58,143 bases of DNA from the IMG/VR virus record IMGVR_UViG_3300014656_000033, positions 1 through 58,143 of that record; one strand, 5' to 3'. This document shows positions 164 through 57,104 of the stretch, one piece after another. Source of the stretch: a virus (lineage: Duplodnaviria; Caudoviricetes). Numbering within the stretch: the first letter of the stretch is position 1; the number at the start of each line of letters is the position of its first letter. The translations under genes and the position numbers were made by a program. The notes under the pieces are model-generated. The model saw nothing but the letters and a program-made list of their open reading frames with translations, was not told where the DNA came from and ran no database searches.

Positions 164-381
164 TGTCCGTAATGCGCTGCGAACAGTGTGAACGAACGAT
201 AGATACCGATTACGACCTCGGCATCTGGATCAACGCGCCCGCGCTGCGGGGCTATGATTTCTTCGTCTGCGGGCCGGAATGCGCCGATGAATGGTTAGCA
301 GAACACGGATTCGAGTCCATGCCAGAGGACTACGACGGCGCGGACGTGCTGGAAGCGAAAACGAAGGAGGCAAACCAATGA
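163..381 (+). CDS. small Cys-rich hypothetical protein
   Basis: CEQC and CGPEC motifs; GGAGG RBS; TAATG stop/start overlap. Confidence 0.7.
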
Positions 382-869
382 AGATCACAGCAAAAATGGT
401 GAGAGAACACGGGGCCTGTTACGATCCGGTAATTCCTAACGGCCAGCCGGAGGGGTTCGAGCTTTTCGAAGAAACAGACGAAATCGAGTTGGTTGATTTG
501 ATGGATGTTTATACGATTCCACGCATTGATCGGATATGGCTGTTCACGACTTTTGCAGACACAGACGATGTTGTTTTGTTTGCTGAAATGTGCGCCGAAT
601 CCGCCGCCTGTTACGCCGCATGGGCCGCAGGGGTTGCAGGGGACGCAGTGAACGCAAGGAACGCCGCAAGGGCCGCAAGGGACGCACGGGCAGCCGCATG
701 GTACGCAGGGGACGCCGCATGGGCCGCAGGGGACGCACGGGCAGCCGCAAGGGACGCCGCATGGGCCGCAGGGGTTGCAGGGGACGCAGTGAACGCAAGG
801 AACGCCGAACTCGAATTCCAGCTATGGCTAATCGCTATTATTTTGAGAAAAACAGGAGCTAACCAATGA
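378..869 (+). CDS. Ala-rich repeat protein (AAWAAGDA repeats), paralogue of the junction gene
   Basis: Likely start ATG 378 after AAGGAGG; [14 protein letters not shown]...RIWLF...FAEMCAE followed by repeats. Confidence 0.75.
613..807 (+). repeat. Ala-codon repeat tract with an exact 54-bp duplication (613-666 and 754-807)
   Basis: acgccgcatgggccgcaggggttgcaggggacgcagtgaacgcaaggaacgccg occurs twice, 141 bp apart. Confidence 0.9.
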
Positions 870-1717
870 CAACCACAACAACAGAAACGTCTGAAAAGAT
901 TGACACCGCAGTCCTGACAATCACCGAAACGGACTTAATTCCCATCTTTACCGCCGACGGCATCCTGCCGTTAATCGACAGCATCGAGGAACGCGCCCGG
1001 TCATTCGCGTTCGATGTGAGCGAAGAAGAAGGCCGAGACGGTATACGCTCGCTTGCATACAACGTCGCCCGCGCTAAAACCACGATTGACGGGGCTGGAA
1101 AGAACATCGTGGCCGAATGGAAGGAAAAATCCAAGCGCGTCGATGAAGCCCGGCGCATTATGCGGGACAAGCTCGGTGCGCTGAAAGAGGAAATCCGCGC
1201 ACCGCTGACGGCGTGGGAAGAAGCGGAAAAGGCCGAGGTCGCCCGCATACAGGCCGAAACGGACATCATCGAAGTCTGGGACGACGCGCACCGCGAGAAC
1301 GCCGACAGGGACGAACTGGCGCGGCGACGAGCCACCGATGATCTTGCCGAAAAACTCCGGCTGGAAGCCGAAGAACGTGACCGACAAGCCGCCCGTGAGG
1401 AACAAATCCGCAAGGAAGTTCTCCAGGAAGCCGAACGCGAGAAGCAGGAAGCCATCGAGGCTGAACACAAGCGGCTTGAAGATGAATTTTATGAAAGACT
1501 GAATGCAAGGCACGAGCGCATCGAGCGCGAACGGAAAACCGAAGAGGCCGAACGCATCAAAGCCAAACGGCTGGCGAACCACAAGGCTCACCGCGAGAAG
1601 ATTCACCGCGAGGCCAGGGCGTCGCTGTTAGAGAACGGCATTCCGGCTGAAATCGCGGACGGCTTGATTCTGATGATAAGCGAGGGTAAGATTAAGCATG
1701 TGGAAATTAAATACTGA
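866..1717 (+). CDS. conserved phage coiled-coil protein (SLAYNVARAKT...RAPLTAWE family, often near recombination genes)
   Basis: 283 aa, E/R/K-rich helical C-terminal half, recognisable N-terminal motif. Confidence 0.7.
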   Translation: MTTTTTETSEKIDTAVLTITETDLIPIFTADGILPLIDSIEERARSFAFDVSEEEGRDGIRSLAYNVARAKTTIDGAGKNIVAEWKEKSKRVDEARRIMRDKLGALKEEIRAPLTAWEEAEKAEVARIQAETDIIEVWDDAHRENADRDELARRRATDDLAEKLRLEAEERDRQAAREEQIRKEVLQEAEREKQEAIEAEHKRLEDEFYERLNARHERIERERKTEEAERIKAKRLANHKAHREKIHREARASLLENGIPAEIADGLILMISEGKIKHVEIKY

Positions 1718-1729
1718 GGGGGCAATTTA

Positions 1730-1921
1730 GTGAAACTCAAAGATAATCCAAAACCAGCAACTCAAGGTCAAATATATTCATTAAGCCAAATGATTTACGA
1801 ACTCCAATCACGTGTAACGGCTTTAGAAAAACATACCGGAACATACAAATGTCCTTGCTGCAATGGAGATGGCAAGCCAAGACGCGCAATTCCACCATCA
1901 GAAGGGCGTTCGTATCGATGA
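1730..1921 (+). CDS. hypothetical protein with CPCCNG Zn-finger-like motif
   Basis: GAGGGG RBS, GTG start, in operon order. Confidence 0.5.
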   Translation: MKLKDNPKPATQGQIYSLSQMIYELQSRVTALEKHTGTYKCPCCNGDGKPRRAIPPSEGRSYR

Positions 1922-2031
1922 GCTCTGCCCGCCTCTACCGCCTAATACTGCTCGGCATCGCGCTGATAGCGTTCAGCGTGGCCGGAATCCTGGCGGCATA
2001 CTGGCATTTCTGGGCGGCGTGGGCGAGATAG
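1918..2031 (+). CDS. small single-pass membrane protein
   Basis: ATGA overlap; MSSARLYRLILLGIALIAFSVAGILAAYWHFWAAWAR hydrophobic stretch. Confidence 0.5.
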   Translation: MSSARLYRLILLGIALIAFSVAGILAAYWHFWAAWAR

Positions 2032-2040
2032 GAGAAAACG

Positions 2041-2886
2041 ATGTTTGACTGGCAAACCGCAATCGGAGAAAAACGAATCGCGCAAAATCTCTACTGGACG
2101 CGGCAATTAAGTCTCTGGGTGGGTTGCAATAAATGCTCACCGGGCTGTGCGAATTGCTGGGCACCGCGAGAAGTCCCGCGATTTCATGCCGACATGCAGG
2201 ATGTTATCGAGCGTGGTTCCGACAATCTTTTAACATGGACAGGCAATATACAATTTAATGGTCAAGCATGGGATATTCTATCCGAACGCGCAAGGCGTTG
2301 GCAATCAAAGCGAAAATTAAAGCCGATTGTTTGGTTTGTGTGTGTGCGGTCTGACTTTTTTCACGATACCATAAGCCCCGGAGATGTTGACTGGGCGCTT
2401 GACCTGATGGGCGCGTGCACGGGTGATGTGTTTTTGATACTTACGAAACGCCCACAAAATATCGCTAACAAGATGTTTGAAGCTACAACAAGCAATCCCT
2501 GCCGCGAACTTGTCGGCGGCGATTATCTTCCAAACGTGCTGCTCGGCGTCACAATCGAGAACCAAGAAAAAGCCGATGAGCGCGTTATGGCTTTGCGTAC
2601 TTCGGGTTGGATGGGACGTATATGGCTTTCAACAGAACCGATGCTTGAAGAAATCCAGTTGCGACAATGCAACCCCGCATTAAAGGACATTCACAACAGG
2701 CGCCCGTTTTCTTTCGTTGTAGTTGGCGGCGAGTCTGGTTCTAACGCCCGCCCGATGAATCCCGATTGGGCGCGGCGAATACGGGATGATTGTAAGGCCG
2801 CTGGCGTCCCGTTTTTTATGAAGCAGATGAGCGGCAAACAGCCCATCCCTGATGACTTGAATATCAGAGAATGGCCGGAGATATAG
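2041..2886 (+). CDS. Gp37/Gp68 (DUF5131) radical-SAM-like phage protein
   Basis: GCNKCSPGCANCWA, SDFFH, LTKRP, GVTIENQ, GGESG..ARPM, FFMKQ motifs. Confidence 0.9.
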   Translation: MFDWQTAIGEKRIAQNLYWTRQLSLWVGCNKCSPGCANCWAPREVPRFHADMQDVIERGSDNLLTWTGNIQFNGQAWDILSERARRWQSKRKLKPIVWFVCVRSDFFHDTISPGDVDWALDLMGACTGDVFLILTKRPQNIANKMFEATTSNPCRELVGGDYLPNVLLGVTIENQEKADERVMALRTSGWMGRIWLSTEPMLEEIQLRQCNPALKDIHNRRPFSFVVVGGESGSNARPMNPDWARRIRDDCKAAGVPFFMKQMSGKQPIPDDLNIREWPEI

Positions 2887-3216
2887 ATGAAAAAACAATT
2901 GCCCGGTTACAAAAAAGGAGGTTGGGGCGGCATAGAAAAAGATTGGATTGCCGTTTTTGTAGAAGATATTGAGGGCTTTTCGGTTGCCGGAATAGTATCA
3001 GACAAACCACGCATAGAAATAAAAGAATGTATTACTTATTGGCGTAAGCCATTTAAAACACAACCGATAGAAATCAAAGAGGAAATCAAGGACAAGGCTG
3101 TTATTTATTTAAAACCAATAACACCACACATTTTTTTTGATATGGCAAAACCATTTCTAATAATGCTTAATCAGTATATACAAGGAGAAATCAATGGTCG
3201 TTATAATGTCAAATAA
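2887..3216 (+). CDS. hypothetical protein (AT-rich)
   Basis: Directly abuts the preceding gene; last gene of the plus arm. Confidence 0.6.
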   Translation: MKKQLPGYKKGGWGGIEKDWIAVFVEDIEGFSVAGIVSDKPRIEIKECITYWRKPFKTQPIEIKEEIKDKAVIYLKPITPHIFFDMAKPFLIMLNQYIQGEINGRYNVK

Positions 3217-17046: not shown

Positions 17047-18122
17047 CTCTCCACCACCATTCCTGTTATTGCGAAATCCACCATCTGCGGCGTCGTCTGC
17101 GGGACGTGCTTTTTATCCGGGTATTCCGTCGGGAACATATTCGTTATCAATCTGTCCGGGTATTGGTTGCCCGCATAAAACACGTCGAAATGCCATTGGT
17201 TGTCGGCAATCTCGCGCCAGAAATCCCAGAAGTCCTGCAACTGATATCGCCAACCAAGAATTACCCCCTGCGGCCCCTGCTTGTTGCCCCCGGATGTTAC
17301 GACTTTCGATTTCCCTCCGATGTCAAGAAAATTCACGGCAAGCTGCTCGCGGGGCAGCGTGTCAAACTGATATGGTTCTTCGTTGTAAGCAAGTATCCGC
17401 TTAGAGCGATAAGTGCATTTCACGAGCTTGCCCGTCTTGTCGGCGTCAAAAGTAACCGACGCCGCCGTGTAGCGGTCGCCGTAATTGAATGTGTAGCCGC
17501 TGGATTGCAGCACCAGCGAATCGGCATCATCGCCAACCCAGACTTCCGGCGCTGGCAACGGCTCCGCATCATAGCCTTCAAGGTTGAACGTCAACCCGTC
17601 GCCGCTGTCTGTGGCGGCTTCGAGGACGCGCCTGACATAAATCACCCAGTTGATAGTCCCTGTGAGGTTGAAAATGTAGTTACATTGCTCAACATCTGAA
17701 TCATCGTCATCGCTGTTCGGCATGAGGTATATATCGTCCGCCCTCAAGTCGATAGTAATCCCGAATCCGACAGCTTGAGCGATAACAATATCAGCCCTTG
17801 AGTATGGAATTAGAATGCAGTCCTTTGTGCCGGAATTTGCCAGCACCGCAGTAATGTTTTCGGAGCCGTCAATCCCAATGTCCGGTGGCGTTTGCAGCGC
17901 GTCATATATGACCGTGTTGTTGGCAACTACCTGCTTTTGAACCGTACCGGCAGAATAAACGACCGTATGCCCCAATACCGGACCCGGATTTTGATAGGTG
18001 TTTCCGCCGTAGTCCAGCGACACCATATCGGCATAGAAATGTTCATCCGACACGTTGTACTTCAATTTCGGGTCGGTATTGCACCCGGCGTTGAGCGTTA
18101 CTGTTGACCGTTCGTATCCCAT
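17043..18122 (-). CDS. distal tail (Dit-like) protein
   Basis: Immediately after tape measure gene; beta-rich 359 aa. Confidence 0.55.
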   Translation of the reverse strand: MGYERSTVTLNAGCNTDPKLKYNVSDEHFYADMVSLDYGGNTYQNPGPVLGHTVVYSAGTVQKQVVANNTVIYDALQTPPDIGIDGSENITAVLANSGTKDCILIPYSRADIVIAQAVGFGITIDLRADDIYLMPNSDDDDSDVEQCNYIFNLTGTINWVIYVRRVLEAATDSGDGLTFNLEGYDAEPLPAPEVWVGDDADSLVLQSSGYTFNYGDRYTAASVTFDADKTGKLVKCTYRSKRILAYNEEPYQFDTLPREQLAVNFLDIGGKSKVVTSGGNKQGPQGVILGWRYQLQDFWDFWREIADNQWHFDVFYAGNQYPDRLITNMFPTEYPDKKHVPQTTPQMVDFAITGMVVER

Positions 18123-21100
18123 CAGTATTCATGCCTCCTCGGCCCGCGTCGCCGTTCGCGGCCTGCTTGTTTTACGGTAGCCGTGACTACTTCTTTCTGG
18201 AAATTACCCTTGTCGTTTATCGTCACATCGACGGACAGCCCCGGCCCTTCCGCCGCCATGCGGTGTAAGGCCCCGCCGATGTTGCGGCTACTGAATTGAG
18301 CTAACTGCATCCTCTGAGAGCCGTACAGCGGACGCTCCCCGCCGAATGAGCTTCCATCATATTTCGGGCCTGTCGGTTCTGGCCGGGCTATTCCGGGCTT
18401 CTGGCCTTTGTCGCCGAATAACGACGATAACCCGAATATCAGAGCGCCAGTACCGAGGATACCGCCGAGCCCACCCCCCAGCAGCCCGCCGAAGCCGCCT
18501 CCCTTGCCTCCAGCGCCACCGCTACCCCCGAATATGCCTCCACCCATACCCCCCATCAATCCATCTGCAATCGAATCAGCAATCTTTCGGGTAAATGCCT
18601 GCTTAACCGCATCGGCCAACGCCTTGAACGCGTTTTTCACACTACCACTTTCAATCCCGGCAACGATTGCATCGCTTATAGCATTACGAAAATTGAGATA
18701 TACCTTTTTGGGATAAAGCTCTTTTCTTGTTTGCTCTATGTCGAATATTTCTTCTGGCCTAAGCCCCTTTAGCAGCTGCTGTTTTGTGTATATCTCGTCG
18801 AGTCGCACTTTTATTGCATCAGCTTCATCCTGAGACAACAATGGATCGTTGAGTTGGGCCATTAACTTCCGAATTTCAAACCTATCAATTTCTAACTGCT
18901 TGAGAGAAAGCGTTCTGTCTGTTTCTTCATCGAGATTTTTAAGTTGCGCATCAACCCTTACAAGTTCAGCCTGAGCGATAGCGTTAATTGTATCAATTTC
19001 TGTTTGGTTTTTATCTACTGCATCGGCAGCAGCCTTCTTTAAAATTTCCGACCGCTCTAACTCCAACGCTTTTCTTTTTTGCTCGATATTGTAGGCGGTA
19101 TCCGCAACGGTTAATTCTTCGCGCCGCACACCAGCTTCTATTGAAGCGGCGGAAATACCAGCTTGAGCCCGTCGTAGGGCCTCTGCTTCATCACGCCTGA
19201 GATTAGTTAATTCACGTTGCTTATCAATTAGGTCTGATTTTAATTGCGCTTCCTCAAGTTCTGTTTGTCTAAGTGTTTTTGATTCATCAATCTGTGAATG
19301 TATGGCTTTTATTTCAGCCTGTATTATCTTTTCGCGGTCAACACCAGCGTTGATTAAATCGTTTGCGAGTTGAAGTTGTATTTCTTCTTCCTTGTTGACC
19401 TCGGCGAGATCGCGCTGTTTTTTGCCGAGCTGTGTTTGTAATTTTATTCTTTCTAATATACTGCGATTGAATAAGTCATTGTTTGTTATTTCTCTTTCAA
19501 TTGATTTAATTTCGGCTTCCGCTTTTTTTATTCTGTTGTCACCAGCCGCCGCGAGGTCTTGGGCAAGTGCAATATCAAGTTCGCGCCTCTTTGAAACTTC
19601 TTCCAACTTATCTTTTAGCGTTATAAGCGCAGTGCTTTCAGCCACAATTGATGTTGTGGCTGCTTTTACCGCGTTGGTATAACTTTCTTCTATCCCCTCA
19701 AGCGTTTTTAATTCTGATTCAACCTCGGAGATTTTCTTTTTTAAATCTGTATAACGCTTTTTTTCTTTCTTTTCCGGCTCGGCCTTACCAACGTATTTTG
19801 AATATTCAGCAGACAAATCTGAATATGCCTGCTTGAGCTTATCGATTTCCGGTTTTAATTCACTTTGTTTTTGTGTGTAGATTGATATGTCTTGTTGCGC
19901 TGCGCCCATTAAATCATTATGATTCTGTATTTCCGCATTGAGATTAGCCACTTCGTCTTTTTGGTCGGCGAGCGTGGCGGTTGTTTCACTATATGCTGCT
20001 TGTAAATTATTAAGTATGTCGGCTCGCTGCTTAAATAAATCGTTACTTTCTTTTACGAGCGGGTTTTCTACTTTCAGGGGTTCGACTATGGTTTTGTGTT
20101 CTGTTTCCGTTGTGACATCGGTAGGCGACGGTTCCTTTTTGGCCATCTCGCCGGCGAGTTGAGCTTGAAGGCCCAATAACCGTCTTTCTTTTTCTTTTAT
20201 CAGTTTAGCGGCTTCATTATATTGGCCTTCTAATTCTTGTTTTGATGCACCAACATAACTGGGTATTTCACCGGGCTTGGGGGCTTTGGTTGCGGCTGTG
20301 CGCGGGCCTTTTCCCGGCTCGTATTTTGATACCGACGGCCCTGGTCTTGTAGTCGGCTTTGTTATTTCTTCACGAATGGCCTTCTTTGCGTCTTCTAATT
20401 TGTTGAGCTCATCTTGTATCGTTTCGATTTCAGCACGAACGCCTAACTCTTTTACACTATCAATAAGTTCTTTCTTTCGCGCCTTTAATCCCCGCTGTAG
20501 CTCCTTAAAAGATTTTGCGGCTTCACCACCGATGCCCTCCGCAACAACCCTGTCTATTTCACGTAATTCTTTATTTACTTTTTGGAGTTCTTCTTTTTCT
20601 TTTTCTAATGTGCCTACTGCGGTTTTGGTTGCATTCCACGCATCGAGCGCAGTTCTCGCCTCGTTCTGCATTCCCTCCTTGAATTTTTTGTATCCAGATT
20701 CCCTACCTTTATTCGCTCGCTGCACTTCTTTCATTCCGACATATAAGCCACCCGCTCCACCTATAATAGCACCGGGAACCGCGCCAACCCCAGCTATTCC
20801 AGCGCCAGCCAAAGCGCCTCCAGCAACACCCGCGACCGTATCCCTAAGTATTCTTTGAAAATCACCTTTGCCAAAGTCTGATATTCTTTTTGCAAGCGTG
20901 GCGATTTCTGGGATTAGCGTAACGGAAATATATTCCGCCATCTTTCCAAACGGTGTATTAGACGGCTCGAAGTCTGCGCCCTCTATCGTCTTTAACCATG
21001 CCTCTATCCCTATTCCTATAGACGCGCCAACCTCTGTTAAAAATTCATCCCACCGCGCTTTCATTTTATCAAGATGAAATGACGTTGTGTTTTTCATCTT

Positions 21101-22240
21101 GTCAAAAGCACCATCCCACGCGCCCGCGAAGTCTTTACTAACAGCTATGTTGTCCTCAATAGTCATGCCCCAGTTTTTAAACAGGGAAATAACGGCCATC
21201 ATAGCTTCGCGCTCTGGAAATACCTCAAAGAACTTTGCCGCTGCGGTGGGGCCGGACATTGCCTCTACTTGTACTTTCATTTCCTTAAATACTTCTATGA
21301 TATCTCTATATTCTTTCGTGACTGGATCAACCCAATCAACGCCAAAAGCCTTTTTTAATTTATCCGCCGTTTCCGGCTTAATAAGAGTCGCAAAAACACC
21401 GTTTAAATATGTTGCCGCTCTTTCGGTACTGCCTATTGTTTTTGTAAGTGTTGCAAACAAACCCATCGCCGTTCCATAGGTTTGATTTACACTCGCGGCG
21501 GTTGCTAAAAACATACCGCTGCTTTTAGCAAGTTCTGCATAAGTAATTTTTCCGCGCTCAATGGTTTTGAACTGAATATCAAGAACCTCTGCCGATTTCG
21601 AGGCGGCGATATTCATCGAAGTAAAAACGCCCGTCAATGCTGCGCCCGTAACTTCCATGTCAACAAAACCAGCAACGCTCGCTTTGGCAGCGGTACGAAG
21701 TAAATCCATGTTGCGGCCCGTTTCGCCGAGGTTGGAATAAATATCGTAAAGGGATTTGGATAATTTGACTGCAGACTTCCCAAATTCCTTCGACATTTCA
21801 CGCACTTGATTAGTCATATAGCCAAGCTGCATCTGGCTCTTGCGGGCAATGGTATTTACAAACGCCATCGCCTTTTCAAGTTCGGCAAACTTGCCCACAG
21901 TCTTGGTGATGATATAAATCATCCCGGCCAACGCCGCCGCCGCCGCCATAAAGTGCACCCGCAGATTTTTTACTGCTGTTCCGGCAGCGGCTATTCCGCT
22001 AACCATCTTCGCCTTCGCATCCCGCATCCGGTTCATCCCTGCGACATATGCCCGCTGTGTTGCGGTTGTCTTTGCGAGCGCTGCGCCAAGAGCCTGAACG
22101 GGATTGACAAGTCCTTTAGTCTGAACCCCAGCTTTCTGAGCTGACTTACCCATCAATCCCATTTCTTTACCGATTGCTTTAACGGCCTTAGACGCCATGT
22201 CCTTGGCCTTAATGATGATTCCTAATTCCCTATCAGCCAT
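18122..22240 (-). CDS. tail tape measure protein (TP901-like)
   Basis: 1372 aa helical; IIIKAKDMAS start, TP901-type core, Gly-rich hydrophobic C-terminus. Confidence 0.93.
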   Translation of the reverse strand: MADRELGIIIKAKDMASKAVKAIGKEMGLMGKSAQKAGVQTKGLVNPVQALGAALAKTTATQRAYVAGMNRMRDAKAKMVSGIAAAGTAVKNLRVHFMAAAAALAGMIYIITKTVGKFAELEKAMAFVNTIARKSQMQLGYMTNQVREMSKEFGKSAVKLSKSLYDIYSNLGETGRNMDLLRTAAKASVAGFVDMEVTGAALTGVFTSMNIAASKSAEVLDIQFKTIERGKITYAELAKSSGMFLATAASVNQTYGTAMGLFATLTKTIGSTERAATYLNGVFATLIKPETADKLKKAFGVDWVDPVTKEYRDIIEVFKEMKVQVEAMSGPTAAAKFFEVFPEREAMMAVISLFKNWGMTIEDNIAVSKDFAGAWDGAFDKMKNTTSFHLDKMKARWDEFLTEVGASIGIGIEAWLKTIEGADFEPSNTPFGKMAEYISVTLIPEIATLAKRISDFGKGDFQRILRDTVAGVAGGALAGAGIAGVGAVPGAIIGGAGGLYVGMKEVQRANKGRESGYKKFKEGMQNEARTALDAWNATKTAVGTLEKEKEELQKVNKELREIDRVVAEGIGGEAAKSFKELQRGLKARKKELIDSVKELGVRAEIETIQDELNKLEDAKKAIREEITKPTTRPGPSVSKYEPGKGPRTAATKAPKPGEIPSYVGASKQELEGQYNEAAKLIKEKERRLLGLQAQLAGEMAKKEPSPTDVTTETEHKTIVEPLKVENPLVKESNDLFKQRADILNNLQAAYSETTATLADQKDEVANLNAEIQNHNDLMGAAQQDISIYTQKQSELKPEIDKLKQAYSDLSAEYSKYVGKAEPEKKEKKRYTDLKKKISEVESELKTLEGIEESYTNAVKAATTSIVAESTALITLKDKLEEVSKRRELDIALAQDLAAAGDNRIKKAEAEIKSIEREITNNDLFNRSILERIKLQTQLGKKQRDLAEVNKEEEIQLQLANDLINAGVDREKIIQAEIKAIHSQIDESKTLRQTELEEAQLKSDLIDKQRELTNLRRDEAEALRRAQAGISAASIEAGVRREELTVADTAYNIEQKRKALELERSEILKKAAADAVDKNQTEIDTINAIAQAELVRVDAQLKNLDEETDRTLSLKQLEIDRFEIRKLMAQLNDPLLSQDEADAIKVRLDEIYTKQQLLKGLRPEEIFDIEQTRKELYPKKVYLNFRNAISDAIVAGIESGSVKNAFKALADAVKQAFTRKIADSIADGLMGGMGGGIFGGSGGAGGKGGGFGGLLGGGLGGILGTGALIFGLSSLFGDKGQKPGIARPEPTGPKYDGSSFGGERPLYGSQRMQLAQFSSRNIGGALHRMAAEGPGLSVDVTINDKGNFQKEVVTATVKQAGRERRRGPRRHEY

Positions 22241-33192: not shown

Positions 33193-35571
33193 TCATTCCC
33201 CCTTTGTCAGACCGAGCCTATCGGTAAAGGCAGGGGCGTCCTTTAGTGTTTTTTCATCCGGCCTCTTGTAATCGAAAGTTCTTGTTTCGATATCTTTTTC
33301 TGTGCTTAGTGTGTAGACAAACATGCAGCCACAATTCGGATGAAAATTACAGGATTGTAACGCCTCATAATCAGGGTCTTTGGCCGATATGAATTGCGGG
33401 ACGGCTTCTTCGGCATCGCCGCCCATCGCTAAACAGAAATCGCAGACCTTAGAATCCATACGGTTAGTCACTACCCCGCCGACAATATCGACATCATCGG
33501 GCAGATCGAAATCTTCATCAGCAAACACGTTGCGGCCTGAGTTATACGCGCCCATCGTGTTATAAGCCGCATCAGCATAAAGCGTCCGGCCCGCCTTTGC
33601 GCCTTCCGTGGTTCCAACAACGAAGGTGTCGACGGCCGTATTGATTCCGGCCACGGCGTCGGCAACTGGCAGCCCTCCGTAAACGGCGTTGAGCGTGTTG
33701 TTTGTAATTGCTTCCTCGATGAGCGCGACGTGCTTAGAGGCTATCTTTTCGGCCTTGAGCGCAAGTTCATCCGTGACGGCGGGTGTCAGCTTCCCTACTT
33801 TCTTGATGCCGTACTCGTCAAGGATTTCGCCAAGTCCTCTATTGGCAGTATCAATAAGGGATGATTTGATTTGGTCTGTGTATTTCCCGAAGTTCAGCCT
33901 GAGTTTTTTTATCTGCGCTATCTTTCCGGCTTTCGTTGGGTTGTCCTTCCAGATTTGCTTAACAACGGCATTGAGCTTTTTCTTTTCGGCATCGGTCAGT
34001 TTCTTTACACCGCCGATGAACTCCTGCTCGATTCCCTTCTGGATGTCGCGCTGTATTTGTAAGTAGTTAATTTTCTTTTCCCATTCATAAGGCTCGCGCC
34101 ACGCCTTGAATGATTCTGATGGGTCGAACTCGGCGGCAAGATGCTCGTGATCGCAACGGGCGCGTGTCTGCGTCGGCGGCTGTTCTTCGGATTTCTGTTC
34201 TGGCGCTGGCGTTTCGGCTTCCGGTTCCGGTTTGACATCTACAGCCGGGTTTTCCTCGTCGGCAGGCGCCTGTTCTTCTTCGCCGTCTGGTTTTACCGGA
34301 ACATTCAATGCTTCGAACATTGCTTTTCCATCGAGGTCGCGAACAAATTCGGGATTCTGTAAAAGCCCCTTGACTATCTCGGTATATATTTCTTTCGTGT
34401 TGTCACTGAATCCCGCCGTGGTCAAATATGCGCGTGGCGCATCCATACCGAAGTTGTAATTCACAAGGTCGGGCAGGATGTAATCGTTGACGTTCTGTAT
34501 GTACCAGTTCAGTAAATCTTCCTGAATGTCAATCATTGTGGTGCGGGATGTTTTGCTCTGCGCGTATGTTCCGGTAGATGAGCCGCTCCTGATAGCTACC
34601 ATTTCGGGAATGAAGATAGCCCGGAACTTCGCCGGTGTATAGATGTTGTTATAGACAGACCATATTTGTGCGGCCTTATCGTCGTCTTTCATGTATTCAG
34701 CATCCCAAAGATACAGTTTGGATTCGCGATCCTGTGTCGATGGCAATGCAATAACGGAATTAGTCATTATTGATGTACCCATATTGATTGCTGTATCTGC
34801 GTTATCGTATTCAGTGCCGCCATCATCTACCGACCTACCGAGGGGATAGCGCATTTTTAGTGCTGGCGAGCCACGGCGCTCCAAGTACATGGCGAGGTCG
34901 AGTAAACATTTGCGGCCCTGATACCAGGGATCGTAAGCATTCACCAGAATCGAGCGCCCGTATTTGTTGCCATACTGTTCATCCCATGTTGCGATAAATG
35001 CTTTTTCAACATCCACCTTAATATCGCCAGTGTTGGTTTTCTGAATATAACCGGCAAATATATCGTCCTTTTTGATTATGCTTACCGAATCCGGATAGTT
35101 GTCTTTGAGCTTTTCATAAACATAGGCGTTATCGTATCGCTTGGATTCCATCTGCTTGGTGTCGGGGTTCTCGCGCTGGAGTTCTAATCCCTTCACCTGC
35201 ATCCATACTTTTTCGTGCGGGATAAACCCACGCGCCAGCGCCCTTAGTGACGATCGCGCAAGCTCGCGGTGAATCTTTTCATAAGCGTTTTCCACGAACC
35301 GCTGAATATCGGGATCTTCACACTCGACATCCCACTGTATACCGTAAATGGGAGCCTTGCGGATAGACAAGGCCAGCGCAATGTCGGGGTCAGCTTCCAT
35401 TTTCTCGAACGTCGATTGCGTTATTTGCGATGGGTTGTACTGGCCCAGCGAGCCTTCTACCGCCGTATAATACCGGCTGCGAGTCTGTGAACCCAATTGG
35501 GGTTTGCCGCCTTTTGCTGGTTTCGTTTCGGTTTTAGCCATTATCTCAACATCACCCCCGTTGGGCGGCAA
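33193..35571 (-). CDS. portal protein (Mu gp29/DUF935-like) fused to MuF-like minor head domain
   Basis: YGRSILVNAY, ERRGSP, GTYAQSKT; C-terminal VCDFC...FHPNCGC. Confidence 0.85.
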   Translation of the reverse strand: MPPNGGDVEIMAKTETKPAKGGKPQLGSQTRSRYYTAVEGSLGQYNPSQITQSTFEKMEADPDIALALSIRKAPIYGIQWDVECEDPDIQRFVENAYEKIHRELARSSLRALARGFIPHEKVWMQVKGLELQRENPDTKQMESKRYDNAYVYEKLKDNYPDSVSIIKKDDIFAGYIQKTNTGDIKVDVEKAFIATWDEQYGNKYGRSILVNAYDPWYQGRKCLLDLAMYLERRGSPALKMRYPLGRSVDDGGTEYDNADTAINMGTSIMTNSVIALPSTQDRESKLYLWDAEYMKDDDKAAQIWSVYNNIYTPAKFRAIFIPEMVAIRSGSSTGTYAQSKTSRTTMIDIQEDLLNWYIQNVNDYILPDLVNYNFGMDAPRAYLTTAGFSDNTKEIYTEIVKGLLQNPEFVRDLDGKAMFEALNVPVKPDGEEEQAPADEENPAVDVKPEPEAETPAPEQKSEEQPPTQTRARCDHEHLAAEFDPSESFKAWREPYEWEKKINYLQIQRDIQKGIEQEFIGGVKKLTDAEKKKLNAVVKQIWKDNPTKAGKIAQIKKLRLNFGKYTDQIKSSLIDTANRGLGEILDEYGIKKVGKLTPAVTDELALKAEKIASKHVALIEEAITNNTLNAVYGGLPVADAVAGINTAVDTFVVGTTEGAKAGRTLYADAAYNTMGAYNSGRNVFADEDFDLPDDVDIVGGVVTNRMDSKVCDFCLAMGGDAEEAVPQFISAKDPDYEALQSCNFHPNCGCMFVYTLSTEKDIETRTFDYKRPDEKTLKDAPAFTDRLGLTKGE

Positions 35572-37536: not shown

Positions 37537-39084
37537 CTACATCCTCCATTGCTCTCGCGGCCTGCCGCCCGCCGCCCAGAGCTTCCCGCGCTGCGGGTTG
37601 ACGATATCGACGCCGAATATTCCCGTCACCATGTAGCGCCATGCGTCCATCGGGTGACTCGACCAATCGTGTTCCGGCTCCGCATCGTCCTTGACGTTGC
37701 CTTGAGAATCGTTTTTGCGGCGATATGATTCTATCGCCTCGACAAAACATGCGGCCTGTTCGCTAACATACACGCGCCCCGCCTTCAAGCGGCGTCGGCA
37801 TGTCCTTATGCCGTCTTCCGTGCCGTAACGCGGCAACGAAAATTGAACTGTTCGGCCCGCTGCCAACGCACAGAACAATGCCTCGTATTCTCGCACCACG
37901 CTATTGCCCTGTGCTATCGGCCTATTTATCCCAGACGGATCAGCGTAATGCTGAATGTCGGCATAGTCGCCACGATAGCCGATTTCGCTTAATAGCCTTT
38001 TCACAACTTCCATATGCTGAAATGGAAGCATTTCGTTGTCGGCATAAGCCCGCAATATATGCTCTTCGTCGCGATTGAACTGACTGATTATGATTGCCGT
38101 GTTGTCCGCCTTGCCAAAATCCCATCCGAAACATAGCGGCAAGTTAGACTCGTAAGGGATGTCCGGCGACACAACAAAATCACCCCGCCATTCCCGATAG
38201 ATTATCCCGGCTATGCTGCCCTCGTAACTTATATCCAGCTCTGAGGCTATTTCGTCGTCGGTCATCGAGGCGGTTTCGCGGTCATACCACGGAGAACGCC
38301 AGCGGCCGTTGTCGTCCTGATAGGCTCCGGCCCCGTAGACGGGATGTTTTCGCCAGTGAATAGACACATGATCCAGCTTTTCGGCTTGTAGGCGTTTGAG
38401 TCGGGCAAACTCATTGTGCTTTCCGTGTGGCGTCGATAGATAGACACCGCCCCGAACAGAACGACTCCATCCAGCCCGTATTGTGCGGGCAAATGGCGTG
38501 AAAGCCATTTCGTCCCAATCTCCAAACAAATAAGCCCCCGAACGTGCCGCGTCACTACTCGCCGCTTCTCCAGAAATAAACGCACCGGGGTTTATTGGTT
38601 CAGCCGTAATCCTTGCATGAGTAAATAATACTCCAGCCTTTTTTTGCATCCATTCCGGCAGTCGTTCTTTCATAAACTTAATGCGCCCAAAAAGGCTTTT
38701 AATAGTTGAGTTTTCACCACCATCGTCAACCTGTTTTAATTTGTGAGATAAGGTCAACGACGAAAACCCCGGCACGAACAACAAACAGTACAGCTTGAAC
38801 GCCTGAGATACCCACGATAGCCCCATCTGTCGGGACTTGTCGACATGTACCATCTTGCGGCCCAGTGCGTCGAATAGAACCTTGATAAAATCCTGTTGAT
38901 AGTCGTACAGCGTAAACGGCACTTCCGGCGGATCGAGATCGGGGTTGAGCGTCTTACAATAAGTGTTGATAAACTCAATACAGGCTTCCGGCGTCCCGGC
39001 GGCGAGGCGGAGCCAAGCGTCGGTGTTGTCTTCGGTTGACATTTCTTGAACCATCGAGCCGAGTTCTTTTGTTAATAACTTCAT
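37537..39084 (-). CDS. terL: terminase large subunit
   Basis: LYDYQ, KSRQMG variant Walker A, DWDE Walker B, STPHG, GWDFG, ADPSG, SHPMDAWRY. Confidence 0.95.
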   Translation of the reverse strand: MKLLTKELGSMVQEMSTEDNTDAWLRLAAGTPEACIEFINTYCKTLNPDLDPPEVPFTLYDYQQDFIKVLFDALGRKMVHVDKSRQMGLSWVSQAFKLYCLLFVPGFSSLTLSHKLKQVDDGGENSTIKSLFGRIKFMKERLPEWMQKKAGVLFTHARITAEPINPGAFISGEAASSDAARSGAYLFGDWDEMAFTPFARTIRAGWSRSVRGGVYLSTPHGKHNEFARLKRLQAEKLDHVSIHWRKHPVYGAGAYQDDNGRWRSPWYDRETASMTDDEIASELDISYEGSIAGIIYREWRGDFVVSPDIPYESNLPLCFGWDFGKADNTAIIISQFNRDEEHILRAYADNEMLPFQHMEVVKRLLSEIGYRGDYADIQHYADPSGINRPIAQGNSVVREYEALFCALAAGRTVQFSLPRYGTEDGIRTCRRRLKAGRVYVSEQAACFVEAIESYRRKNDSQGNVKDDAEPEHDWSSHPMDAWRYMVTGIFGVDIVNPQRGKLWAAGGRPREQWRM

Positions 39085-53447: not shown

Positions 53448-53652
53448 TTAATTCTATCCCCGCAATGGTAGATTCGAGTCCCGATACAAAAGCCCAGCAA
53501 ATATAATCAGGGCAATCGGCGCAAGCTCGCTCCCGCTCGCTCATATTCAATCCACCGGGACATTTCCGTAAGGCAATTTTCAATGTGCCTTTTAATAGTT
53601 TTATGGCGTCGCGTTTATACATGATTTTTCTTTTATGTGTACCTTTTTCCAA
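53428..53652 (-). CDS. Cys-containing hypothetical protein
   Basis: CP...CADC...C. Confidence 0.5.
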   Translation of the reverse strand: MEKGTHKRKIMYKRDAIKLLKGTLKIALRKCPGGLNMSERERACADCPDYICWAFVSGLESTIAGIELNAKEQK

Positions 53653-53875
53653 CTTCCCATTCGTTTATGACTTCCTCAAGTTCAGCAATGCGTTTCTTTG
53701 CCGCTCTTAATTTTTCCAACGCTTCATCCTTCCATGTTGCTTCCTGCGAGACTAACACATACGGAACCAAATAACAATCTTTTCTCTTCGCCGCTTTCAG
53801 TTGATGTTTCAGGTCGTCTATCGTGGTTTTTTGTTCTCCAATTACTATTAACGCATCAGCCAAATTTGCTATCAT
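53633..53875 (-). CDS. coiled-coil hypothetical protein
   Basis: AGGAGG RBS before MIANL. Confidence 0.55.
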   Translation of the reverse strand: MIANLADALIVIGEQKTTIDDLKHQLKAAKRKDCYLVPYVLVSQEATWKDEALEKLRAAKKRIAELEEVINEWEVGKRYT

Positions 53876-54195
53876 TGATTCCTCCTGCAATTCGCAACCG
53901 GGCATGACTTGCCGCAATCATTAAAACCCTTCGCGCAATATTCTCGCGCAAAAGAATCCCGCAGTTTCTTCGGCAACATTTTTAGCGTTTCTTTGTCAAG
54001 CATCTTTTCTACCCGCCAGTAATTTTCTATCTTTTGTTTTTCCGGCTCGAACAGAACGGGCGCCGCGTGTATCAATAGCCCTTCGGTTTCCGTTAGGGTG
54101 TCGTGGCGCGACAAGGAGGCGTCAGAGATAATGTCGCCGTCGAGGTTTTCGAGGGCGTGGGTTGCCTGATATTTTTTATGCCGTGACGGTAACAT
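53872..54195 (-). CDS. first gene of leftward arm, near-leaderless, C-terminal Cys cluster
   Basis: ATG 54195 lies 6 nt downstream of a TATAAT box. Confidence 0.55.
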   Translation of the reverse strand: MLPSRHKKYQATHALENLDGDIISDASLSRHDTLTETEGLLIHAAPVLFEPEKQKIENYWRVEKMLDKETLKMLPKKLRDSFAREYCAKGFNDCGKSCPVANCRRNQ

Positions 54196-54201
54196 GCCCC
54201 A

Positions 54202-54231
54202 ATTATAGCCACCGATGGCGTTTCGTGTCAA
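54202..54231 (-). promoter_or_regulatory. leftward early promoter
   Basis: TTGACA-18-TATAAT. Confidence 0.8.
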
Positions 54232-54285
54232 GGGTGCTGGAAAACAGTAGCTTTAATGCGAAATATATTTATTTTGAGAATTGTA

Positions 54286-54314
54286 TTGACAAGCGGTGGC
54301 GGGGTGATTAGAAT
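54286..54314 (+). promoter_or_regulatory. rightward early promoter
   Basis: TTGACA-17-TAGAAT with AT-rich upstream region. Confidence 0.8.
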
Positions 54315-54349
54315 GATTACAGAATGAAAGATACGAGGAGGCAAACAAA

Positions 54350-54502
54350 ATGAAGCTCACAAACTACAACACGGTAAATCGCGCATCAAAAACCGCAACG
54401 GATACTGCGGCGTGTCGGTCGCGGGCTATGCGGAGTAGGCTTGCGCGGGCGGCCCGGAAGGTGCGGCGAGCGCGGCAAAAAGAAAATCACCCGAAAGCAT
54501 AG
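54350..54502 (+). CDS. 50-aa Arg-rich peptide
   Basis: GAGGAGG RBS; ...RSRAMRSRLARAARKVRRARQK. Confidence 0.55.
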   Translation: MKLTNYNTVNRASKTATDTAACRSRAMRSRLARAARKVRRARQKENHPKA

Positions 54503-54558
54503 CCGAAACCCGCTAAGGCGGGTCTGTCGGGCGTCACCCGGCACTGAGGAGGCAGACG
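54502..54558 (+). ncRNA. type II hammerhead ribozyme
   Basis: GCC GAAA CCCGC-UAAG-GCGGG UC^ UGUCGGG-CGUCA-CCCGGCA CUGAGGA GGC; loop I CGUC can pair with downstream GACG. Confidence 0.9.
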
Positions 54559-54560
54559 AA

Positions 54561-54746
54561 ATGAAAAAGAAAATCAAGGCGGCAATAGAAAAGCTGCAAT
54601 CTCGAAAAGATGAATTAGCCAATAGCGACAATCCACAAGTTAAAGAAATATGTGCATATCTGCGCGGCAAAATTGACGGATTAGAAGCTGTTCTGGATGC
54701 CCTGTACGGCAATAACGTGTTGCTAAATATCATGGCCGAAAAATAA
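54561..54746 (+). CDS. small helical protein downstream of the ribozyme
   Basis: SD GAGGAGG lies within the hammerhead core; MKKKIKAAIEKL. Confidence 0.75.
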   Translation: MKKKIKAAIEKLQSRKDELANSDNPQVKEICAYLRGKIDGLEAVLDALYGNNVLLNIMAEK

Positions 54747-54758
54747 CAGGAGGCAGAC

Positions 54759-54935
54759 ATGGAAACAGAATACACATGGAAAATGAATACCTATGAAGAA
54801 CATGATGAGGCTTACATCTTCAAGAGCAACGCCGTCGGCGTCCTTGAATATTCAACGACGGTTCCTTACGGCGACGAAATTTCCCGCAAGGCCGCTGCCG
54901 TGATGTTTGAGGCGCTGAAAGCGGCGGGAGTATAA
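54759..54935 (+). CDS. 58-aa hypothetical protein
   Basis: AGGAGG RBS; METEYTW... Confidence 0.6.
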   Translation: METEYTWKMNTYEEHDEAYIFKSNAVGVLEYSTTVPYGDEISRKAAAVMFEALKAAGV

Positions 54936-54936
54936 C

Positions 54937-55137
54937 ATGAACCTTTTGAAAAAGATAGAACATCTATATAAAAATGGCACCGTTCAGCATGCCGGTTACG
55001 TCGGCGTAAATTCAGACATTATGCTGTTATCGGCAAAAGGCAAGGGCGGCGGTTTTCTGGTGATTTTCATTCACCCAAATGACGTTGTGGAAGTTCGGCG
55101 CTCGCGCTTTAATGGCAAGCTGATATTTCAAGGATAA
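54937..55137 (+). CDS. hypothetical protein
   Basis: Directly follows the preceding stop. Confidence 0.55.
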   Translation: MNLLKKIEHLYKNGTVQHAGYVGVNSDIMLLSAKGKGGGFLVIFIHPNDVVEVRRSRFNGKLIFQG

Positions 55138-55177
55138 CGTCGCGGACGCGGCAAGGCGTCGGGCGAGGAGGCGGAAA

Positions 55178-55345
55178 ATGGTAAAATTTTCAACCCGTGA
55201 AAACTGTAAAAATTCGGCCCATACAGAATTCAAAAGCACTCACGTTGGAAACGACGACAGAAATGGACGTCATGGGAAGTTAGTACGGTTTTGCCCCGAA
55301 TGCGGCTCTATAGAAGTTCCGCAAAAGGACACGGTGCAAAAATGA
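55178..55345 (+). CDS. small zinc-ribbon protein
   Basis: GAGGAGG RBS; FCPECGS. Confidence 0.55.
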   Translation: MVKFSTRENCKNSAHTEFKSTHVGNDDRNGRHGKLVRFCPECGSIEVPQKDTVQK

Positions 55346-55539
55346 ATAAAAATAACAAAGAACTCATCGACGCTTTAGGAAAATACATCGCCGATTTCAC
55401 TGGCTCATGCCCACTCGATATGCACGACTGGAAAAGCTGCCCGGCGGTAATCTACGACGAACCCGACGAATGCGAAAAGAAATACCCCATTTATAAATGC
55501 TGGATAGATTACATAAAAGAAGGAGAAACCGCCCAATGA
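55342..55539 (+). CDS. Cys-rich hypothetical protein
   Basis: ATGA coupling; CP...C...C...CW. Confidence 0.6.
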   Translation: MNKNNKELIDALGKYIADFTGSCPLDMHDWKSCPAVIYDEPDECEKKYPIYKCWIDYIKEGETAQ

Positions 55540-55694
55540 AAACCCAGAACAACAACCTCAACATCCGCATGTCCGATGAGCTTATGAATCAGCTTTACGC
55601 CGCCGCCGAACACGCCGACATTCCGTATTCCCGTTTCGTGCGGGACGCCATCGAGGAAAAAATTCAACGCGAAGGTATTGACAAACCACGGTAA
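55536..55694 (+). CDS. ribbon-helix-helix (Arc/CopG-like) regulator
   Basis: LNIRMSDEL...L...A....SRFVRDAIEEKI. Confidence 0.8.
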   Translation: MKTQNNNLNIRMSDELMNQLYAAAEHADIPYSRFVRDAIEEKIQREGIDKPR

Positions 55695-55707
55695 TTGTAA
55701 TTAAAAT
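55678..55707 (+). promoter_or_regulatory. sigma70-type promoter
   Basis: TTGACA-18-TAAAAT. Confidence 0.65.
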
Positions 55708-55726
55708 CATGTCTGAGGAGGCAAAC

Positions 55727-56032
55727 ATGACAGCAAGGATTTCACACCTACAGAATTTTGAACCGCTCGCGGTAGAACCGCCCCACAATATCGGCGGTTA
55801 TGCCCGATGTCCGCGCTGCCGACACACCCTACACGCCGAGCCGGACGAGCCGAATGTCGCGGTTTGTATCTGCGGCTACCGATTTGCGCGGGATGCGGCT
55901 CCGCTGAACTGGCAGACCTTCCATCCCCGCTATAATATCGACTGGGCCGAGGTCAAGGGGGCGACAGGTATTTTTACACGCCGCCGCCCAGCGTGCACAA
56001 ACCAACATCGAGGCGGCGATTGCGGAATTTGA
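55727..56032 (+). CDS. zinc-finger protein
   Basis: CPRC...CICG; GAGGAGG RBS. Confidence 0.65.
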   Translation: MTARISHLQNFEPLAVEPPHNIGGYARCPRCRHTLHAEPDEPNVAVCICGYRFARDAAPLNWQTFHPRYNIDWAEVKGATGIFTRRRPACTNQHRGGDCGI

Positions 56033-56065
56033 AGCTATCGCCGGGAATAGGAAGGGGACAACGGA

Positions 56066-56368
56066 ATGATGCGGCTATCGGGAATGCCATCGCCGTCAAA
56101 CTATTTTAGCGGAAGTTGCGTTTGCGGCAATGAACCATGTTCGTGCAACGAAACAATCACTACGCCCGCGCCGAATCTGTCACTCGACGAAGATAATAGA
56201 TTGGGCTCTGCCAGCGATGGCGCGTTCATAGCTTTCGGGCGGCAACTTCGCCGGGAAATTGAGGCGGACAGGCGGCGTGAACGAAAAGCCGCTGACGGCA
56301 TCAAATTAAAACCGTGGTGTTTTAAATGCTGTTCGCGTGACTGCGGATGCAACGGAGGCTCGAAATGA
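56066..56368 (+). CDS. Cys-rich hypothetical protein
   Basis: CVCGNEPCSC, CFKCCSRDCGC. Confidence 0.55.
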   Translation: MMRLSGMPSPSNYFSGSCVCGNEPCSCNETITTPAPNLSLDEDNRLGSASDGAFIAFGRQLRREIEADRRRERKAADGIKLKPWCFKCCSRDCGCNGGSK

Positions 56369-56525
56369 CAACGTGGAATCTGCTTTTGGTGTTGTTCGCC
56401 GCCGTCGGATTCTGGCGGTTGGGGATATATTTAGTGTTCGATGAATAAAAACGAAGGAGGTATCAACTGCTAACGAATCTCCGACAAAATCAGTTAAAAA
56501 CGATTAAAAACAATGGATATTAAGG

Positions 56526-57104
56526 ATGGATTTTGGCATGAAAAAACATATTGTTTATGCAAGAACCGTATTTAGGCACAAGTGGTTCGTAATGATAGAA
56601 TGTTTCAAAGAGGGGTTATATTGGCAGGGTATAATTCACGATTGGAGTAAATTTATTCCTTGGGTTTGGGTTGCATACGCCAACGTGTTCGGGGTTAAGG
56701 GAAAGTCGCCCCGCGATAAAACAGGAGCATATAACCCCACAAAAGTATCAGATGAATTTGACAAAGCGTGGTGTGTCCACCAGAAGGAAAAACACCACTG
56801 GCAATCATGGATTTTGCTTGGAGACGTTGGCTCGGTAAAAGTTCTTCGTATGCCGCGCAAGTATGCGATTGAAATGATTTGCGATTGGCGTGGGGCAGGA
56901 CGTGCATATTCTGGTGAATCTAATCCTCTTAAATGGTATCAGGCCAACAGAGACAAAATGAATTTGCATCCAGATACGGCTCGTTTCGTGGATGTCACTA
57001 TATATGGAGAGAAATATTTTGAATTAGATTGTATTTGCGGGGCGGGCAATGATGCGTCTTTTCATCCAATGGAGTGCAGGAGTTACAAAGAATATAGATA
57101 TTGA
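56526..57104 (+). CDS. DUF5662-like HD-type protein
   Basis: HKW.V, HDWSK, HHWQ, MP..Y..EMICDW. Confidence 0.85.
   Translation: MDFGMKKHIVYARTVFRHKWFVMIECFKEGLYWQGIIHDWSKFIPWVWVAYANVFGVKGKSPRDKTGAYNPTKVSDEFDKAWCVHQKEKHHWQSWILLGDVGSVKVLRMPRKYAIEMICDWRGAGRAYSGESNPLKWYQANRDKMNLHPDTARFVDVTIYGEKYFELDCICGAGNDASFHPMECRSYKEYRY

Follow-up and report, generated by a model that had tools for sequence, protein, structure and literature searches.

A 2011 study described type II hammerhead ribozymes with their pseudoknot, showed that they cluster around single genes in prophages and reported that the clustered phage copies cleave polycistronic RNAs in vitro (PMC3088659). Type II hammerheads adjoining phage-like genes of Desulfovibrio vulgaris self-cleave in vivo (PMC8782182). 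According to a 2019 review, the purpose of bacterial hammerheads still needs to be defined (PMC6765202). Here we describe a type II hammerhead in a 58,143-nucleotide (nt) stretch of tailed-phage DNA, the complete IMG/VR virus record IMGVR_UViG_3300014656_000033 (positions 1 to 58,143; Duplodnaviria, Caudoviricetes), referred to below as the window. The ribozyme lies between two short open reading frames (ORFs), ORF1 and ORF2. As proposed in a preliminary description of this DNA, its catalytic core very probably acts as the Shine-Dalgarno (SD) sequence of ORF2, and comparison with related elements indicates that the overlap of ribozyme and ribosome site has very probably been selected.

By every test available here, the element is a genuine member of this known family. 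A search with Rfam hammerhead models had been suggested as a check, and Hammerhead_II (RF02276) matches 54501-54561 on the plus strand with 49 bits, above the gathering score of 37. The E-value is 4.5e-7 when the window is searched with all 4227 families and 1.1e-10 with this family alone, and the alignment covers model positions 1-66 of 66. RF02276 is the sole match, no other Rfam family being found in the window at E ≤ 1, and both Rfam and the structural descriptor introduced below locate a single hammerhead in the whole 58 kb. The core, the GAAA, the GUC triplet, stems I to III and the complementarity between loop I and the tail are all situated where the preliminary description had placed them. 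The open stem II is built from GCC at 54502-54504 and GGC at 54551-54553 and comprises three pairs, G54502-C54553, C54503-G54552 and C54504-G54551, the last being the required G10.1-C11.1 pair. It is followed by GAAA (54505-54508), which provides core positions G12, A13 and A14 together with A15.1. The stem III hairpin (54508-54523) has six pairs between 54508-54513 and 54518-54523 and a UAAG loop; five of the pairs are G-C or C-G, and A54508-U54523 (A15.1-U16.1) closes the stem. From the Rfam alignment position, the scissile bond is predicted between 54524 and 54525, after C54524 (C17), which follows G54522-U54523 and is a non-G nucleotide as a type II hammerhead requires. The stem I hairpin (54525-54543) pairs 54525-54531 with 54537-54543 in seven pairs including one U-G, carries the loop CGUCA and is retained in every fold that we computed. 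The core CUGAGGA (54544-54550) corresponds to C3 U4 G5 A6 G7 G8 A9; the variable position N7 is thus a G. Minimum free energy (MFE) and centroid folds of 54495-54570 reproduce exactly this three-way junction, with stems I and III capped and stem II open. Mg2+-dependent self-cleavage leaving 2′,3′-cyclic phosphate and 5′-OH ends would be expected from membership in the family.

The upstream reading frame indeed ends at the ribozyme, since the last base of its TAG (54500-54502) is the outermost base of stem II, and the 58-nt gap between this stop and the ATG of ORF2 at 54561 is filled entirely by the ribozyme. Core positions G5 to A9 and the stem II bases G10.1 and G10.2 together read GAGGAGG (54546-54552), the putative SD sequence of ORF2; it is N7, G54548, that completes GAGGAG(G) across core and stem II. 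Eight nucleotides separate the last G of this motif from the ATG, which lies 10 nt after G54551 (G10.1). A GGAGGC-type context is common to ORF2 and to the ATGs at 54350, 54759 and 55178 of the same operon. The corresponding plus-strand segments at 54335-54352, 54546-54563, 54749-54761 and 55162-55180 are near-identical, each with GGAGGC followed by an A/G-rich stretch, and the 3′ half of the ribozyme looks like the standard translation leader of this phage. The start of ORF2 at ATG 54561 is favoured over the in-frame TTG 54441 because P0002, the only homologue of ORF2 in a collection of 5.8 billion proteins, has the same length of 61 amino acids and aligns without gaps (57% identity, residues 13-61 to 13-61, reaching the last residue of both proteins). 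The assignment of core and stem II as the ribosome-binding site of ATG 54561 is thus upheld by the spacing, by the neighbouring GGAGGC sites, by the P0002 alignment and by a link between N7 and start codons in related elements. It is because of this link, by which a G at N7 tracks nearby start codons in comparative samples, that we consider the use of the core as an SD sequence very probable.

For the comparison, type II hammerheads were collected by gapped motif scans, in which the core letters were fixed, and then filtered with a structural descriptor, which required CGAAA, at least 4 base pairs in stem III with A-U as the closing pair, a nucleotide other than G, at least 4 base pairs in stem I, and CUGANGAG. 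Applied to the initial 1.245 Mb (128 records), the descriptor gave 201 matches and none when the same sequence was reversed or complemented only. In total, it yielded 262 distinct type II hammerheads from 164 records. An upstream stop codon within 12 nt of C11.1, closing a frame of at least 40 codons, was present at 193 of the 262 copies. Usually a separate ribosome site is located past the pseudoknot tail, and the start codon mostly follows G10.1 by 16-34 nt. Among the first 199 copies, N7 was U in 148, C in 32, G in 10 and A in 9, most of the G copies having come from a scan that required G. The best ribosome site overlapped the core in 26 of the 47 copies with N7=G and in 4 of 215 with any other N7 (Fisher 4.6e-19). 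A count that used no ribosome-site criterion gave the same picture: the first ORF of at least 40 codons began within 13 nt past G10.1 in 28/47 N7=G copies and in 22/215 others (p 2.5e-12). These 28 compact copies precede 24 unrelated proteins; for stem I as for stem III, 26 distinct hairpins occur among them. Pairs that the descriptor does not force were nevertheless canonical, namely pairs 5 and 6 of stem I in 28/28 and 27/28 copies and pairs 5 and 6 of stem III in 28/28 and 25/26.

The same link was seen in a matched control that was based on the stem II of the window (CC...GGC) and its closing pairs and considered elements in which both stems are formed and at least the next 75 nt downstream are available. 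In viral contigs, the N7=G pattern was found at 8 loci and the N7=A/C/U pattern gave at least 120 matches. A start codon within 13 nt was present in 8/8 of the former and, among the matches listed, in 6/105 of the latter (p 5.9e-9); several of these six resemble spurious in-frame codons upstream. In metagenome contigs, a window-like pattern retrieved 73 stretches. Sixty were distinct, and both stems were formed in 53. Of these 53, 39 have a start codon no more than 13 nt away, and the proteins that follow fall into 33 clusters; in 49, a stop triplet is present in the 12 nt upstream. Bacterial genomes contributed 29 stretches with the N7=G pattern; a descriptor-passing hammerhead was present in 15, and 10 of these were compact. 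The bacterial records are from Terriglobales, Acidobacteriaceae, Acidobacteriota, three Deltaproteobacteria, a Syntrophobacterales metagenome-assembled genome (MAG) and Alphaproteobacteria. One Salinarimonas MAG contig (L193:877-3672) carries three compact N7=G copies with starts 7-9 nt after G10.1 and one copy with N7=U.

Since the core served as ribosome site in just 4 of 84 bystander hammerheads, i.e. copies selected by no scan pattern, the compact subclass constitutes a small minority. Its geometry is uniform. Stem I has seven pairs in 24 of the 28 compact copies, the seventh being U-G in 21, loop I measures 5 nt in 49/69 (Watson-Crick pairs only), and stem II has four pairs in 26/28. Such fixed geometry without a pseudoknot suggests another tertiary contact. 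The window element shares N7=G, a start 4-13 nt after G10.1 and an upstream stop in stem II with this subclass. It departs from the norm of a four-pair stem II without pseudoknot by having three pairs in stem II and a possible four-pair pseudoknot. It can best be regarded as an intermediate that combines the compact ribosome-site layout with a tail of classic appearance and a significant Rfam score.

The survey also brought up clustered elements. On the minus strand of L096, at approximately 200-3000, at least 10 type II hammerheads form a row in which each copy lies between small ORFs, at intervals of about 250-390 nt, and has a GAGGTG-like ribosome site of its own behind it. L031, L054 and L083 contain four pattern matches each. 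L141, a viral contig with a compact hammerhead, has in addition a twister-sister match at 2979-3046 (+) with 33.2 bits, just below the gathering score of 34.

The best explanation overall, to which we assign a probability of roughly 60%, is that the RNA is cleaved first and then translated from the core-derived SD sequence, with no obligatory regulatory gate. The transcript would cut itself after C54524 and thereby separate ORF1 from ORF2 and the genes that follow. The upstream fragment carrying ORF1 would end in the stem III hairpin with a 2′,3′-cyclic phosphate, and the downstream mRNA would begin at U54525 with a 5′-OH and the stem I hairpin. Because only the three pairs of stem II hold them together, the two products should part. 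Their separation would leave CUGAGGAGGC single-stranded directly in front of ATG 54561, with GAGGAGG acting as the SD sequence, and N7 would be G because a G completes the ribosome site. It follows from the anatomy that, of the hammerhead topologies, type II alone leaves the downstream product with an unpaired CUGANGA strand and an unpaired 3′ strand of stem II. The window element would then be one member of a recurrent compact cassette of ribozyme plus ribosome site in uncultured phages. Terminal 5′ hairpins and 5′-OH ends alter the attack of some bacterial RNases on mRNA. A stabilised 5′-OH product and a translational timer, both envisaged in the preliminary description, might arise at this locus as hypothetical outcomes.

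Several observations weigh against this explanation or the evidence behind it. Among the N7=G copies, 19/47 have no nearby start codon. Conservation of the core in the relatives is not independent evidence because the search patterns fixed the core letters, and beyond the protein-cluster check the counts are not phylogenetically independent. No relative of ORF2 was confirmed in viral or metagenome contigs. In 17 loci with compact relatives (L132, L135, L136, L138, L139, L141, L143, L144, L148, L149, L152, L158, L164, L003, L004, L007 and L009), Rfam returned no hammerhead match at gathering score, and at E ≤ 10 a search of 9 of these loci recovered one compact copy (L004, 27.9 bits), along with two classic hammerhead copies in L148. 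The compact subclass is under-detected by the current RF02276 model, and the window copy is the only compact-layout element here that Rfam calls. The fold energy of 54495-54570 is unexceptional (z = −1.79; 10/200 shuffles fold equally well). Moreover, in the MFE structure of a 330-nt precursor, 54497-54504 (stop codon and 5′ strand of stem II) pairs with its perfect 8-nt complement GGCUAUGC inside ORF1 (54424-54431), which replaces stem II. A last point concerns the pseudoknot, which usually speeds type II hammerheads at low Mg2+ and which in the window could have only 4 pairs.

Of the pseudoknot proposed in the preliminary description, the complementarity stands: loop I offers CGUC (54532-54535) to GACG (54555-54558) in the spacer between ribosome site and ATG, and GACG begins at the second tail base past stem II, in the same register as the family consensus pseudoknot. 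The pairing is not supported statistically. When loops and tails were permuted within the compact subclass, about 11% of the pairs formed at least 4 Watson-Crick pairs, compared to 14% as observed, and the mean best helix was 2.65 observed and 2.54 permuted, with 49/500 permutations reaching the observed value. The classic class differed clearly from its permutations (mean best helix 3.91 vs 3.00, 0/200 permutations reaching the observed value; helices of at least 4 pairs in 60% vs 26%). We rejected the idea that a pseudoknot characterizes the compact class, there being no enrichment above permutation. The four-pair version in the window is plausible and could be due to chance.

Two related proposals assign a regulatory role to the cleavage itself. 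The broader one, which we regard as less likely than not, sees in the compact elements a distinct phage type II subclass, mostly missed by Rfam, in which the core is the ribosome site and cleavage licenses translation of the next gene. This subclass would be characterized by N7=G, a short open stem II spanning stop codon and SD sequence, a seven-pair stem I and usually no pseudoknot. If true, a given RNA could either fold as a ribozyme or bind the 30S subunit, not both, and the arrangement would be a natural intercistronic switch, gated by a ribozyme, that would give phage hammerheads a defined function. The narrower proposal, the timer of the preliminary description, concerns the window and appears rather unlikely to us. 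It holds that the site is locked in the folded ribozyme and that ORF2 is translated only after self-cleavage and loss of the 5′ fragment, the cleavage rate setting the delay or dose of ORF2. The lock would consist of G8 paired to C3, as in the active hammerhead fold (PMC3088659), of the two G residues in stem II and of the spacer engaged in the pseudoknot. In the active fold, three of the six AGGAGG bases are in fact engaged in pairs, and loop I offers the spacer a possible partner. Precedents exist in a synthetic type I hammerhead, in which cleavage exposes an SD sequence located in a lengthened stem I (PMC7445771), and in some eukaryotic RNA viruses, for which ribozyme activity was reported to be needed for translation initiation (bioRxiv 10.1101/2024.05.16.594327). 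Such a lock is difficult to reconcile with a stem II of only three pairs, which a ribosome terminating on TAG 54500-54502 would itself open, and with the absence of pseudoknot potential from most compact relatives. In addition, RNAfold, which models secondary structure and does not represent the tertiary core, predicted no gain in accessibility after cleavage; the mean probability of 54547-54553 being unpaired was 0.67-0.71 in precursors and 0.37-0.62 in 3′ products.

The helix between 54424-54431 and 54497-54504 suggests a further possibility, namely that translation of ORF1 licenses the ribozyme. In RNA free of ribosomes, the helix would sequester the 5′ strand of stem II. Ribosomes on ORF1 would melt it, and cleavage and release of ORF2 would follow. 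Besides its presence in the precursor fold, the rarity of such helices speaks for this idea, as at least 8 pairs were reached in 0.64% of shuffled upstream regions, and N7=G copies own 6 of the 12 longest helices of this kind in the sample. Across the family there is little to see: the mean longest helix was 4.02 compared to 3.95 in shuffles (4.03 or less), and at least 8 pairs occurred in 4 of 256 hammerhead loci compared to about 1.6 expected. An upstream helix that traps the ribozyme was rejected as a family feature for lack of enrichment across these 256 loci. As an exploratory observation at a single locus, licensing by ORF1 is improbable.

We consider it similarly doubtful that the element is an inactive or very slow relic, in which the hairpins persist and a strong tertiary contact needed for useful cleavage at cellular Mg2+ is missing. 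The short, statistically unsupported pseudoknot and the helix competing with stem II would fit a relic, and some hammerhead-like candidates were inactive in the study by Perreault et al. (PMC3088659). All invariant core positions, C17 and the G10.1-C11.1 pair are intact, however, the score exceeds the curated cutoff by 12 bits, and the pseudoknot strand occupies the tail register of the family consensus. Finally, a chance resemblance, i.e. an ordinary ribosome site behind two unrelated hairpins, would accord with the unexceptional fold energy and is effectively refuted by the E-value of the window against all of Rfam and by the reversed and complement-only control of the descriptor.

The window is linear, and CheckV estimates its completeness at 69%. 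Tailed-phage genes for tape measure (18122-22240), portal (33193-35571) and large terminase (37537-39084) are all encoded on the minus strand. The large terminase has at most 24% identity to any cultured phage, and a megablast search of cultured phages with 53600-57100 had no hits. Minus-strand genes span about 3.3-54.2 kb, and from 54350 onwards small genes form a block on the plus strand. A search for RNA sequencing runs containing 53800-56200 yielded none. Two divergent sigma-70-like promoters, recognized by consensus match alone, separate the two blocks. The plus-strand candidate (54286-54314; TTGACA, 17 nt, TAGAAT) matches 11/12 consensus positions, and a transcript from it would carry ORF1, the ribozyme and ORF2. 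Early timing of ORF2, as assumed in the preliminary description, may be read hypothetically from this layout, in which the promoter at 54286-54314 is the sole support. The minus-strand candidate (54231-54202; TTGACA-18-TATAAT) is a perfect 12/12 match. Six nucleotides past it lies ATG 54195-54193 (−), an in-frame start of the ORF at 53872-54231 that would give a protein of 107 amino acids without family match; transcription from this promoter, which points away from the ribozyme operon, may yield a leaderless mRNA.

ORF1 (54350-54502, +) encodes a very basic protein of 50 amino acids, its ribosome site context being GAGGAGGC, 7 nt and ATG, and searches of PHROGs and Pfam gave no match. ORF2 (54561-54746, +; 61 amino acids) has no significant PHROGs or Pfam family, with phrog_7352 as a single weak match (E 0.0036). 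About 1 kb downstream of the ribozyme, the same operon encodes a small ribbon-helix-helix protein (55497-55691, +), which matches Pfam CopG_antitoxin with 32.9 bits against a cutoff of 28 and also a PHROG Arc-like repressor.

What appears to be new here is that N7=G, found in a minority of phage type II hammerheads, goes along with a start codon 4-13 nt past the core. The main text of the 2011 study uses neither the term Shine-Dalgarno nor ribosome binding, and its supplementary alignments may hold N7=G copies (PMC3088659). A literature search for a natural hammerhead core serving as SD sequence, with supplementary alignments outside its scope, gave engineered systems only. A core that doubles as ribosome site ties RNA cleavage physically to translation initiation. 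That N7=G is associated with start codons in front of dozens of unrelated genes suggests that the sole free core position is selected for a task other than catalysis. The two functions should be separable, as a change of N7 should affect the ribosome site only and a change of G12 or C17 catalysis only. With thousands of bacterial and phage hammerheads known, this layout offers a concrete way to probe their function.

The closest relatives of the window element are the RF02276 hammerheads described in 2011 (PMC3088659), with which it shares core, topology, short stem II, the register of the possible pseudoknot and the phage intergenic site. It differs from them by N7=G in place of the usual U and by a start 10 nt after G10.1, where about 16-34 nt are usual; for both reasons the core itself would supply the ribosome site. 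Clustered prophage hammerheads have the intercistronic position in common with it and were proposed to cut polycistronic phage RNA into messages that differ in stability or translation (PMC3088659, PMC6765202). In contrast to these clusters, the window has one copy, and its overlap with the ribosome site would add a mechanistic link that is stated neither in the Fig. 3 text of the former paper nor in section 13 of the latter. Among engineered systems, the SD-masking switches also hold the site within a ribozyme, and cleavage is expected to leave it accessible (PMC7445771). They are type I constructs with a long masking helix and an aptamer, whereas the window element is a natural type II hammerhead with the site in its core and three-pair stem II and no ligand domain. 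The eukaryotic RNA virus ribozymes likewise place a hammerhead in a short gap before an ORF and tie cleavage to translation (bioRxiv 10.1101/2024.05.16.594327); these are type I ribozymes of RNA genomes, and initiation is cap-independent with no SD pairing. RiboJ, the sTRSV hammerhead with a 23-nt hairpin, cuts off the upstream RNA, so that a hairpin forms the 5′ end before the ribosome site, and in E. coli it increased mRNA levels about twofold and protein levels two- to tenfold (PMC6206723). In this type III-derived synthetic part, hairpin and ribosome site are separate additions, whereas in the window stem I is the hairpin and the core would be the site. The window element may thus be viewed as a natural counterpart of RiboJ and of masked-site aptazymes.

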